From a virus, in IMG/VR virus record IMGVR_UViG_3300044979_000004, positions 1-64,000 of that record: 64,000 nucleotides of DNA; one strand, written 5' to 3'. Every line of letters starts with the position of its first letter. The first letter of the stretch is position 1. Both the position numbers and the translations under genes were made by a program. Under the pieces are notes generated by a model that saw only the letters and a list, made by a program, of their open reading frames with translations, ran no database searches and was not told the DNA's origin. Below are positions 1-7,456 of this stretch, piece by piece.

Positions 1-330
1 GGTCTGCGCTTCTCAGGTCTGCGCTTCTCAGGTCTGCGCCGCTCAGGTTTGCGCCGCTCAGGTTTGCGCTTCTCAGGTCTGCGCTTCTCAGGTCTGCGCC
101 GCTCAGGTTTGCGCCGCTCAGGTTTGCGCTTCTCAGGTCTGCGCTTCTCAGGTCTGCGCTTCTCAGGTTTGCGCCGCTCAGGTTTGCGCCGCTCAGGTTT
201 GCGCTTCTCAGGTTTGCGCCGCTCAGGTCTGCGCTTCTCAGGTCTGCGCTTCTCAGGTTTGCGCTTCTCAGGTCTGCGCTTCTCAGGTTTGCGCCGCTCA
301 GGTTTGCGCCGCTCAGGTTTGCGCCGCTCA
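1..330. repeat. 22 tandem copies of a 15-bp unit GGT(C/T)TGCGC(TT/CG)CTCA
   Basis: Directly visible; each unit encodes one pentapeptide repeat on the minus strand. Confidence 0.95.
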
Positions 331-394
331 GGGTATCCGCGTTAACAGTGTGGATTACACTTCCATTCCAACGATTTTTGATTTGAATTGACAT
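1..394 (-). CDS. Pentapeptide repeat protein (3' end runs off the window)
   Basis: Not in the ORF track. Minus strand reads [42 protein letters not shown]..., i.e. A(N/D)L(S/R)(G/S) pentapeptide units; ATG at 394. Confidence 0.9.
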
Positions 395-453: not shown

Positions 454-1986
454 CTATTCCTCTCTCATCTTTCTGCCGGACGATGTTTCCATGACGTTTG
501 AGGTTTGAACGGCTCCATCCCAATTGTAGATGCCGTCATAAGACGCTGAGAGATACTTGCCTGATGAATCGCGCCTCAGTGCATCGATTCTAGCCTTATC
601 CGATACGGTAACAGGGACAATGTATTGCCCTGCCTGCTTAAGTGTGAGCTTAAGAGTGTGCGCCGTGTATGCACAGTTCTTAATCTCCGCCCCCGTCCAT
701 CCTTCGTCATTCGGCAATTCTGAATCAGTCATACCAAACTTTTGCTTATAGATATCCCATATCTTGTTTCTCTCATCCTGCGTAGCAGGCGCATCGAAAA
801 AGAATGTGGCAGCGCTAAACCGTCTCTTCAATTCGGGGGGGAGTGAGTTTACAGAGTTGCAAGTGGCCAGCATTAAAACCCGTCCGCCCGATATGGAATC
901 AATCATCCCTTGCGCATTGCGCAGGTACTCGTTAGAACTGCCAACGATGCCAGATTCCATGGCCGCGATATCAAACTTTATCGCAGGAATGCCGTACTTA
1001 TTCCCGATTGCCTTTGCAAGAGCGGACTTGCCCACTCCCGGTATCCCGAGTGAGAGAATACCTCGAATCTGCTTGTCTTCAGTCCATTCCAGCATGGTGC
1101 CGAGTTGTTTGGTTGATACTCCAGACATATCGGTTCCGGACCCTGCGAACCCCTTCTCTATCTCATCCATAAAAAGGATGAGGTTAGGCGGATTCAGACC
1201 TTCACATACTTGGCAGAGGTATTGCTTTACCTGATTCAATCCCCCGATATCGTCAAGTGTTTCTTTTCCGCTCAAAACCTGCAAACCTCTAGTTTGGTTA
1301 ATGGCTTGCCGTTTGCGCTCCCATAATTGATCGATGTCTAACTTTCCAGCTTTCTTGTCAATGCACATAGCTACGGATTGCTCACTCGGAAAGTAAGGCA
1401 ATCCGATTAAAGCTTTCGTTGCGCCGTCTAAGACCTCCGCTTTAGGTTCGGGGAGCTTGGCGAATTCAAAGATGGATTTAACGCATGCCTGAAGTATCTC
1501 AGCGGTGGGCAATGGCTCATCCAAAACTAAAATATCGTTCGATAGTTCCATAGGTAGAATTGATCCCGAACCTGTAAGGAGGATTAGCATCTTTCCGCCT
1601 TGTTTGAACGTGTCACGCAGGTTCCAAACCCCTTGGATCACATTAGGGTCATTCCCCCAAAAGAGATGAGCATTTGAAATGAAGAGAATGCTATCCTCTG
1701 GCAGTGAATCGGCCATGACTAGGCATTCGGTCAAAACCCGCGTTACCTCATTCTGTGCGCCTAGTTTGGCCAAGGTTTGAGTAATCGCCTTTCCGCCTGC
1801 GTCATTCAATCCCTGCCATCCCTTCAGGCAATCCCAAAGGATGAGGCTATATGGGGTTTGGGTTTTGAGGTTTTTAATCCCCTCTGTAGTCGAGTGGGCA
1901 TCATACGTCCGAATGCAGGCTAACGGCACTCCCGCCCGTAATGCTGCCTTGTACTGCTCATGGAACGATAGAGACATTTGAGTCAC
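454..1986 (-). CDS. AAA+ ATPase, Ycf46/SpoVK-like, with rearranged Walker motifs
   Basis: DIGGL box, ILFMDEIEK (Walker B), GIPGVGKS (Walker A), ATCN (sensor 1), LPPELKRRF, GWTGAEI. Confidence 0.85.
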   Translation of the reverse strand: MTQMSLSFHEQYKAALRAGVPLACIRTYDAHSTTEGIKNLKTQTPYSLILWDCLKGWQGLNDAGGKAITQTLAKLGAQNEVTRVLTECLVMADSLPEDSILFISNAHLFWGNDPNVIQGVWNLRDTFKQGGKMLILLTGSGSILPMELSNDILVLDEPLPTAEILQACVKSIFEFAKLPEPKAEVLDGATKALIGLPYFPSEQSVAMCIDKKAGKLDIDQLWERKRQAINQTRGLQVLSGKETLDDIGGLNQVKQYLCQVCEGLNPPNLILFMDEIEKGFAGSGTDMSGVSTKQLGTMLEWTEDKQIRGILSLGIPGVGKSALAKAIGNKYGIPAIKFDIAAMESGIVGSSNEYLRNAQGMIDSISGGRVLMLATCNSVNSLPPELKRRFSAATFFFDAPATQDERNKIWDIYKQKFGMTDSELPNDEGWTGAEIKNCAYTAHTLKLTLKQAGQYIVPVTVSDKARIDALRRDSSGKYLSASYDGIYNWDGAVQTSNVMETSSGRKMREE

Positions 1987-6312: not shown

Positions 6313-6501
6313 CTACTCTCCTCTCAATTTCTTCTCTAGCAACTCGATCTGGGACTCCAGGGACAGAATCCTGTTGGTTTGCTGCTGAATCTTTACCAAC
6401 AACTCATCATAACCGTTTACAAAGTGAACTGCACATGGGCCGGAATGGTGCTTCGCTCGGCTACAATAACATCCGGGTGGTTGTAGTTTAGAACAATTCA
6501 T
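6313..6501 (-). CDS. Small Cys/His-containing protein
   Basis: CYCSRAKHHSGPCA motif plus short coiled coil; ATGA overlap with upstream gene. Confidence 0.55.
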   Translation of the reverse strand: MNCSKLQPPGCYCSRAKHHSGPCAVHFVNGYDELLVKIQQQTNRILSLESQIELLEKKLRGE

Positions 6502-7118
6502 GCCTCATCTCTGATCTTTCTTGGTCCAGTGGCCGGTGCCATCACGCTCTTAGTCGGTACCGGGGCAGCAGGCTGACTTGCTGATGATACGTTGGCAGCA
6601 TCCTGTCCGGTTTGTGCCAGTCCCCCTAGAAGACCCTGCAATCCTTGAAGTCCTGGGCCTTGTTGCTGACTTTGTTGCTGTTGGGCTTGCTCTTTCTGTA
6701 CAGCCTGAGACTGCTTATCCTTATACATCTGCTCAAGTAATTTGAGTTTATCTTGTTGTGTTGTCAGTTGCTCGTTGATCTTAGAACCGTTCAAGAAGCT
6801 TTTCTTCTTCTTGGTATTCCTTATCATGGCTTTTTGTAGTTCTATCTGCTGTTTAAGTTTTGCCTTTTGGTCTTCATCGTCTACCAAACTGTCAATAGTT
6901 TGACCAAGTTTGTACGCCATATCGTTTGACAAATCCTTCAGAGTCACATAATCGTCATAGCTATTTACAGGAAGTATTTGACCAGGAGGCGGCTCTAGGG
7001 TATTTGCGGCCAGCGGTTTGTACATAAACTTATCAAGCACGTTTGGAGTATCATAGTTCAAAATATCACCCATGCAATCGTCCGGTAATTTTAGCGTATT
7101 AAATACGTCAAGTGTCAC
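6498..7118 (-). CDS. Hypothetical coiled-coil, Gln-rich protein
   Basis: 206-aa ORF ending GPRKIRDEA. Confidence 0.6.
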   Translation of the reverse strand: MTLDVFNTLKLPDDCMGDILNYDTPNVLDKFMYKPLAANTLEPPPGQILPVNSYDDYVTLKDLSNDMAYKLGQTIDSLVDDEDQKAKLKQQIELQKAMIRNTKKKKSFLNGSKINEQLTTQQDKLKLLEQMYKDKQSQAVQKEQAQQQQSQQQGPGLQGLQGLLGGLAQTGQDAANVSSASQPAAPVPTKSVMAPATGPRKIRDEA

Positions 7119-7456
7119 TACGCCTCATCTCTGATCAGCCGTCCGGGTCTTTGCTCTTTAACCTGTGCCCCATCGTGCTTATGCTGGTCGCAGAATATCC
7201 CTAACTGTATCCATATATCATCTGGCACTTTCAACATAGTGATCTTGTCGAAGTCGATCTGTAGAATCTCTTGACAGGATTTGCAGTAGGCGCGGCAGTC
7301 CATCCCTCCGGATACAAGGTGTCTGGATTGGAGGACTACGTTAAAATTCGAGAGTCGAGCAATACCAATCATGGTTTCTTGCTCGATCCCTCGCTTAGAG
7401 TTTGCGTACAGAGACGACGCGGGGCCTCCGAATTTTATCTCTGCGCCAAAGTCCAT
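7118..7456 (-). CDS. Hypothetical protein (possible Zn ligands)
   Basis: CKSC...FCDQHKH; ends PGRLIRDEA. Confidence 0.6.
   Translation of the reverse strand: MDFGAEIKFGGPASSLYANSKRGIEQETMIGIARLSNFNVVLQSRHLVSGGMDCRAYCKSCQEILQIDFDKITMLKVPDDIWIQLGIFCDQHKHDGAQVKEQRPGRLIRDEA

Follow-up and report, generated by a model that had tools for sequence, protein, structure and literature searches.

Here we describe a AAA+ ATPase encoded at one end of a 64,000-nucleotide stretch of viral DNA (hereafter, the window) that comprises the first 64 kb of the 89,199-base, metagenome-derived virus record IMGVR_UViG_3300044979_000004 (estimated completeness, 93%). This protein is very probably an active, classic-clade, Ycf46-like ATPase of two modules in which one unit of the catalytic core, strand beta3 with helix alpha3, has been moved ahead of strand beta1, placing the Walker B motif before the Walker A motif. 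This is a non-circular permutation of the AAA+ core, and it probably has a single origin.

The chain of classic-clade AAA domains runs beta1, alpha1, beta2, alpha2, beta3, alpha3, beta4. The window protein possesses the features of this clade, namely, the Walker A lysine, the Walker B Asp-Glu pair, the sensor-1 asparagine, and the arginine finger(s), and violates the order, with Walker B (residues 269-275) preceding Walker A (residues 314-321). The succession DIGGL, Walker B, P-loop, sensor 1, and LPPELKRRF, which had been read from the DNA in the initial annotation, exactly matches the translation of the open reading frame (ORF), and the block positions given there (Walker B at about 1170-1075, Walker A at about 1065-920) are correct within a few bases. 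The P-loop is not followed by a second Walker B: the pattern DE[IVL][EDN]K occurs once in the protein, at residue 274, and in the predicted model, helix 350-366 and the sensor-1 strand 370-376 are only three residues apart. The Pfam profile PF00004 matches the protein in three stretches (48.6 bits against a cut-off of 21.2), the best of which aligns residues 311-358 to profile positions 2-49; in one relative with the normal order, the same profile covers positions 8-129 in a single piece. Out-of-order partial hits had been expected from this profile. They were obtained with a profile of the protein's own family, and the best piece of PF00004 was limited to the beginning of the domain.

The family profile, derived from 117 relatives, was compared with solved structures and matched the D2 domain of the archaeal ATPase VAT (5vc7) as three pieces that are out of order, with chain residues 321-373 aligned to profile positions 304-356 (the P-loop unit), residues 376-429 to positions 260-311 (the Walker B unit), and residues 424-501 to positions 366-438 (sensor 1 onward). 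Phages also encode relatives with the normal order. Aeromonas phage HJ05 gp65 (WEV89366.1) and Rhizobium phage vB_RleS_L338C gp050 (AHC30467.1) have the same two-module build and the same catalytic residues as the window protein, and their N-terminal module, P-loop unit, sensor 1, and lid are collinear with it, but their Walker B unit follows alpha2, in the normal order. BLASTP alignments of the window protein with these two proteins are collinear, at 23-24% identity and an E-value of 1e-22, and include residues 7-260; the N-terminal module is homologous to that of the normal-order members. The gaps in these alignments are reciprocal, one over window protein residues ~266-306 and the other over the Walker B unit of the relatives, and the MAFFT alignment also has reciprocal gaps. 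When residues 270-306 alone were aligned to HJ05 gp65, they matched its Walker B unit (residues 353-390) with a score of 62, compared with 27.2 +/- 4.1 for shuffled sequences, none of which reached 62 in 1000 trials. Because this block aligns to the normal-order Walker B block beyond all 1000 shuffles, the Walker B-first order is, on sequence grounds, a case of homology and no chance motif match. The normal-order family is itself large, with Walker A before Walker B in 120 of 121 proteins; the remaining one has an intein in its P-loop. A partial MAFFT match of the relocated strand to the N-linker of normal-order proteins, which could have been taken for a vestigial Walker B, is likely an alignment artifact, and that linker looks like the standard AAA N-linker.

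The permuted order extends across a broad family. A word-indexed search yielded 2178 matches at E <= 0.001 among 8000 scored candidates, and an exhaustive search of representatives at 50% identity yielded 5669 matches at E <= 0.001, of which 1097 had E <= 1e-30. Every one of the 121 proteins retrieved in the database search places Walker B first, 117 as detected by pattern and four, with P-loop variants, as detected by alignment, which is the family-wide order that a search for homologs had been proposed to reveal. Among the 81 viral loci (80 fetched and the window), 73 show Walker B first by pattern, and so does gp103 of the cultured podovirus Tunturi_3, which has a complete genome of 97.6 kb. 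All 342 aligned sequences collinearly place Asp or Glu at position 274, Glu at 275, and Lys at 320 (numbering of the 510-residue ORF is used throughout). Position 274 is Asp in 339 sequences and Glu in three, whereas E275 and K320 are found in all 342; N377 and R389 are each present in 341, the exception in both cases being the same fragment of 354 amino acids (aa), and R388 is present in 271. A single flag of Walker A before Walker B, raised by a loose pattern, is contradicted by the collinear alignment of all 342 sequences at D274/E275 and K320. As judged from this conservation, the catalytic residues are under strong selection. Two permuted members (P0272 and P0341) contain inteins directly after the sensor-1 strand, one of these with a LAGLIDADG endonuclease, and the normal-order protein P0127, a close relative of HJ05 gp65, has an intein with an HNH endonuclease in the P-loop; inteins tend to occupy essential active sites. 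The out-of-order matches to VAT, the normal-order relatives, and the conservation in 342 sequences together support the original proposal that two secondary-structure blocks are swapped with all catalytic motifs intact.

The structure predicted by AlphaFold2 with the alignment of 117 sequences has a mean predicted local distance difference test score (pLDDT) of 92.5 and a predicted template modeling score (pTM) of 0.83. The model is confident and AAA-like, with the elements in the permuted order: helix 251-262 is followed by strand 269-273 and helix 290-304, then by strand 308-314 and helix 320-331, by strand 335-338 and helix 350-366, and by the strands 370-376 and 393-397, with the lid helices last. 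The catalytic half (residues ~232-482), compared with Vps4, spastin, FIGL1, and p97-D2 using VIA-align, superposes over 197-214 of its ~250 residues, with Z-scores of 15.6-16.5 and a root-mean-square deviation (rmsd) of 2.6-3.2 A, and the superpositions extend to residues 477-487. The ~40 residues of this half that remain unaligned correspond in number to the moved block. The whole model superposes on the D1-D2 tandem of p97/Cdc48 (Z-score ~17, 396-405 residues, rmsd ~5 A) and therefore the N-terminal half is a degenerate AAA-like module.

Coevolution was analyzed by mean-field direct coupling with 341 sequences (effective number, 255) and 239 columns, giving 27,261 pairs. The relocated strand is coupled to the sensor-1 strand through M273-M372, L271-M372, and I270-V370 (ranks 20, 26, and 86), and its beginning is coupled to the end of alpha2 (L269-S366, rank 3). 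Strands beta1 and beta5 are linked by S312-F397 (rank 29), L250 of the DIGGL motif is linked to G319 of the P-loop (rank 8), and there are also couplings of alpha3 to alpha2 and to the region of pore loop 1. Such a pattern would be expected if the sheet order 5-1-4-3-2 were kept. The rewired P-loop topology suggested in the initial annotation thus gains support from a confidently predicted AAA-like fold and from the coupling of the relocated strand to the sensor-1 strand, with the connectivity in three dimensions derived from the order of secondary-structure elements, the superpositions, and coevolution.

For the phylogeny, a maximum likelihood tree was built from 70 selected rows after removal of both blocks of Walker B columns; the rows were the window protein and subsets of the database relatives (20 of 117), of the viral-locus proteins (18 of 76), and of the normal-order proteins (31 of 121). 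One branch, with support of 100 in the Shimodaira-Hasegawa-like approximate likelihood ratio test (SH-aLRT), splits the 39 permuted rows, drawn from about 340 permuted sequences, from the 31 normal-order rows, that is, one change. The permutation most likely has a single origin, in a lineage of phages or mobile elements that diverged from Ycf46-like ATPases of the normal order. It would probably have come about by a tandem duplication of the segment from beta1 to alpha3, followed by loss of the front of the first copy and the back of the second. No intermediate of such a duplication, with Walker B on both sides of the P-loop, was found among the loci examined. One candidate, the viral locus L077, was rejected because its second DE-type motif is located far toward the C-terminus, at residue 533.

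The moved unit consists of Walker B, pore loop 2, and helix alpha3, which normally lie between alpha2 and beta4, and the permuted chain runs linker, beta3, alpha3, beta1 (P-loop), alpha1, beta2, alpha2, beta4 (sensor 1), beta5, and lid. All strands would be parallel and the new connections would cross the sheet in the old direction, so that the sheet order and the active site could persist. Only the covalent connections differ from those of the normal domain: the N-linker now enters beta3, the P-loop strand beta1 is reached from the pore-loop-2 region through alpha3, and the sensor-1 strand is reached from the pore-loop-1 region through alpha2. We read the protein as an active, ring-forming ATPase because all catalytic elements of the classic clade are present and conserved; it would presumably act as a ring-shaped, ATP-driven remodeler, the ring and the substrate being likewise presumed.

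Several observations weigh against this reading. The P-loop is relaxed, with the second glycine of GxxxxGK[ST], G319, kept in only 191 of the 342 sequences and replaced by Ala in 87 and by Ser in 54. Aligners that depend on sequence order are blind to the position of the moved block, and the placement of the relocated strand between beta4 and beta2 is derived from secondary-structure order, superpositions, and coevolution. The couplings between beta3 and beta2 are weak (ranks 332 and 364 of 27,261), as is that between beta1 and beta4 (rank 200). ATPase activity, an oligomeric state, and a substrate are predictions for all members of the family. The pore-loop-1 region, SGIVGSS, lacks an aromatic residue, as it does in the normal-order relatives, and therefore classic threading is not assured. 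The partner genes of the relatives (see below) were not found in the 89-kb record, which is 93% complete by estimate and ends ~450 bases downstream of the ATPase gene; this absence shows little because the record is a fragment that ends beside that gene. Finally, the tree is unrooted and includes a subset of the rows, such that it shows one change without giving its direction.

Three other explanations were considered. The permutation could be real, with the moved block completing the sheet of a neighboring subunit in a three-dimensional domain swap, in which case the active fold would form only in the oligomer. AAA proteins are obligate oligomers, the new connections from alpha3 to beta1 and from the linker to beta3 are short, and coevolution cannot separate contacts within a chain from those between chains. 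However, the monomer model is confident across residues 262-400 (block means of 83-97) and superposes on monomeric AAA domains as described above, and we consider a domain swap improbable.

Another explanation is that no true permutation occurred: the upstream hhhhDE motif would be a look-alike that is part of the linker or of the last stretch of the N-terminal module, and the catalytic module would be a pseudo-ATPase that binds nucleotide without hydrolyzing it. The N-terminal module is itself degenerate and AAA-like, the P-loop is relaxed at G319, and the best piece of the Pfam match ends at profile position 49, all of which would fit such a protein. The homology, however, is not confined to the DE pair and spans 37 residues, which align to the strand, loop, and alpha3 of the Walker B unit in the normal-order relatives and in VAT. 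Furthermore, the D274/E275 pair is kept in 342 of the 342 sequences with only three conservative Asp-to-Glu changes, the relocated strand coevolves with the sensor-1 strand, and normal-order relatives have only a standard N-linker at that place. This explanation thus appears very unlikely, and genuine relocation of the beta3-alpha3 unit remains the reading that we favor.

An artifact of assembly or gene calling, by which two parts of an ordinary AAA gene became misordered, might be suspected given that the record is derived from a metagenome and that the gene has a highly repetitive neighbor, the pentapeptide-repeat gene, and lies ~450 bases away from the contig start. Its probability is negligible, however: of the 81 independent viral contigs, 73 show the permuted order by pattern, every one of the 342 aligned relatives has it, as do the completely sequenced Tunturi_3 and bacterial genome bins, and short contigs from three studies span all three junctions. 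The first of these contigs contains an identical 151-base piece over positions 1036-1186 (alpha3 into beta1), the second a ~91% identical piece over 895-1218 (linker into beta3 and alpha3 into beta1), and the third, at 664-924, crosses from alpha2 to the sensor-1 strand. All three are Logan contigs and not raw reads, no piece covers the whole gene, parts of the gene are uncovered in some runs, and the shares in two of the three runs were small (0.07 and 0.05); the run of the first contig may be the source sample. Mis-assembly of the two blocks, which had been named along with a second Walker B as an outcome that would refute the proposal, is thus excluded by independent assemblies and by contigs that bridge the junctions.

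The top coevolving pair overall connects R388, the trans-acting finger, with lid position 433, which corresponds to sensor 2. Arginine is present at 388 and not at 433 in 271 of the 342 sequences, at 433 and not at 388 in 68, and at both positions in none; the remaining three have arginine at neither position or are gapped. The window protein is in the R388/A433 state. On a FastTree tree of the 342 sequences, at least 31 switches between the arginine states are required, a count that tree error may inflate. The toggle is absent from the 120 normal-order proteins sampled, all of which keep both finger arginines and none of which has arginine at the lid position; these proteins carry an R-x-G-R arginine pair, whereas the permuted family has R-R.

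The C-terminal tail of the ATPase has a pattern that recurs in 44 of 77 ATPases, 32 of 68 neighboring DUF3150-like proteins, and 45 of 1735 other ORFs. Two more window proteins share this tail, one of 206 aa encoded at 6498-7118 (GPRKIRDEA) and the other of 112 aa encoded at 7118-7456 (PGRLIRDEA), and the tail may be a shared docking peptide. It is possible, if rather doubtful, that the permutation gave rise to a working motor with new wiring and a looser active site, in which, in this clade alone, at least about 30 moves of the gamma-phosphate arginine took place between the trans finger at 388 and the cis sensor-2 site at 433, with arginine never at both. Such a motor, together with DUF3150 partners sharing the GRK(M/I/F)R tail, would belong to an undescribed machine of phages and plasmids, made up of AAA, DUF1257, DUF2997, and DUF3150 proteins, whose components would dock on a common receptor by means of this tail.

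The AAA+ core is among the most studied folds, and the order of its elements is treated as fixed; the present family indicates that the fold tolerates a non-circular permutation. It constitutes a natural experiment on how covalent connectivity, that is, the leads from helices to strands, couples the nucleotide state to the pore loops. Collinear profiles such as PF00004 cover the domain only partly, and therefore such proteins may be under-called or wrongly split in automated annotation and in classification by structure.

The positions of the ATPase gene, its modules and motifs, and related features of the window are given in Table 1.

Table 1. Coordinates of the permuted ATPase, its modules and motifs, and related features in the window.
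Feature	Residues	Nucleotides	Strand	Remarks
Pentapeptide-repeat protein gene		2-394	-	near-identical 15- and 30-base repeats; follows the ATPase gene and runs off the contig start
Whole ORF of the two-module AAA ATPase	1-510	454..1986	-	510 aa from GTG at 1986; stop codon 454-456
N-terminal module	~5-215	1342..1974	-	degenerate AAA-like alpha/beta domain and helical lid, P-loop absent; from predicted secondary structure and superposition
DIGGL motif	246-250	1237..1251	-	start of the catalytic module
Relocated unit	268-306	1069..1185	-	Walker B strand, pore-loop-2-like loop 276-289, helix alpha3
Walker B strand LILFMDE	269-275	1162-1182	-	D274/E275 in LILFMDEIEK
Helix alpha3	290-304	1075-1119	-	
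Walker A unit	307-366	889..1068	-	strand beta1, P-loop, alpha1, beta2, pore-loop-1 region, alpha2
P-loop GIPGVGKS	314-321	1024-1047	-	contains K320
Second P-loop glycine	319	1030-1032		
Sensor-1 strand VLMLATCN	370-377	856-879	-	contains N377; directly after alpha2
Arginine pair in ELKRRF	388-389	820-825	-	R388/R389
Helical lid of the catalytic module	~400-475	562..789	-	GWTGAEI with A433 at the sensor-2 position; aligns to the AAA lids of VAT and p97
Lid position 433 (sensor 2)	433	688-690		
C-terminal tail SGRKMREE	503-510	457..480	-	basic-hydrophobic; low pLDDT (51-58)
Tail at the C-terminus of the 206-aa protein		6501-6530	-	
Tail at the C-terminus of the 112-aa protein		7121-7150	-	

The true start of the ATPase is likely ATG at 1977, which is preceded by AAGGTG seven bases upstream and would yield a protein of 507 aa; the database copy (P0002) has this length. 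In the N-terminal module, the invariant polar columns include R26, T27, D29, N105, H107, Q118, N122, and R124, and D156 is conserved as well. R26, T27, and D29 occupy the would-be place of a P-loop, and N105 and H107 that of Walker B. Because the module keeps invariant polar residues of its own despite having no P-loop, its conservation suggests a binding site and not a mere scaffold. The profile phrog_8638 matches residues 5-257 (E-value 3.4e-41). In the catalytic module, all 16 of the 16 sequences compared have both glycines of the DIGGL motif (G248 and G249), and the loop between the Walker B strand and alpha3 is rich in Gly and Ser.

Other genes of the window encode a family-A DNA polymerase, the large terminase, the portal, and an internal virion protein that contains a transglycosylase domain. 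Upstream of the ATPase are genes for endonuclease VII, an HNH-type endonuclease, two phosphoesterases, and DNA polymerase. In the relatives, the ATPase is followed on the same strand by genes for DUF1257 (30 of 81 loci), DUF2997, a protein of ~108 aa (21 of 81), and a DUF3150-like protein of ~313 aa (68 of 81), the latter matching PF11348 in 13 of the 40 members scanned; there, the ATPase would function within an AAA-DUF1257-DUF2997-DUF3150 gene module. The normal-order phages also have DUF1257 and then DUF2997 downstream, in the same places as in the permuted relatives. A tblastn search with the 23 ORFs of a 70%-identical locus (L005) against the window and positions 72000-89199 detected none of them downstream of the ATPase, and searches of the whole record with the DUF3150-like protein and with PF06868 produced no match. 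The assembly probably broke in the pentapeptide repeats, which would explain the missing partner genes. A profile search of the PDB with the DUF3150-like neighbor gave nothing below an E-value of 0.18. The family thus draws attention to an uncharacterized gene module that is widespread in soil phages, prophages, and plasmids. In cyanobacteria, DUF1257, which is Ycf35, is found clustered with DUF2997 (PMC4284462).

Members of the family are labeled 'SpoVK/Ycf46/Vps4 family AAA+-type ATPase' in the database. The cyanobacterial and plastid Ycf46, which goes with Ycf35 (DUF1257), is a putative relative of the window ATPase; the function of Ycf46 is itself poorly known. The best two-module structural matches are p97/VCP, Cdc48, NVL, Rix7, and Drg1 (Z-score ~17, 390-409 residues; Foldseek E-value 1e-13). 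These type II proteins of the classic clade share the Walker A, Walker B, sensor-1, and arginine motifs with the window protein, but are only 13-18% identical to it, and both their modules have the normal order and bind nucleotide, whereas the first module of the window protein has no P-loop and the second is permuted. The anti-phage ATPase IetA/IteA was rejected as a relative, given that the NCBIfam IteA model scored 22 bits against a cut-off of 510, in the P-loop region only, and the PADLOC IetA model scored 26.6 bits over residues 310-356 only.

In circularly permuted P-loop NTPases, such as cpGTPases, the termini are joined and the chain is opened elsewhere. The window protein does not conform to this type of permutation: the DIGGL helix and the C-terminal beta4-beta5-lid segment keep their places, and only an internal unit has moved. 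Natural non-circular permutations are known in other folds, such as the HK97-like fold of Bordetella phage BPP-1 (PMC3863775). The latter is the same kind of event, with the elements reordered and the three-dimensional fold kept, in a fold different from AAA+. The literature searched, whose coverage excluded subscription journals and supplements, yielded no report of an AAA+ protein with Walker B ahead of Walker A, no non-circular permutation of the AAA+ core, and no function for the gene module; in the main text of the Tunturi phage paper (PMC11924767), the terms ATPase, AAA, and Walker do not occur.

Bacterial genome bins were scanned by pattern, and the best 80 of 451 matches were analyzed. 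Among these, 50 loci are permuted by pattern, mostly from Acidobacteriota, 10 loci of lower identity from Planctomycetota follow the normal order, and for the other 20 the pattern gave no clear assignment. Within the same best 80 of 451 matches, the permuted copies center on bins of Acidobacteriota (Terriglobia and Bryobacteraceae), and single permuted cases are found in bins of Dormibacterota, Chthonomonadales, Myxococcales, Dehalococcoidia, and Nitrospirota (loci L086-L143). One bin, MFD05580.bin.1.127, carries copies on four contigs.

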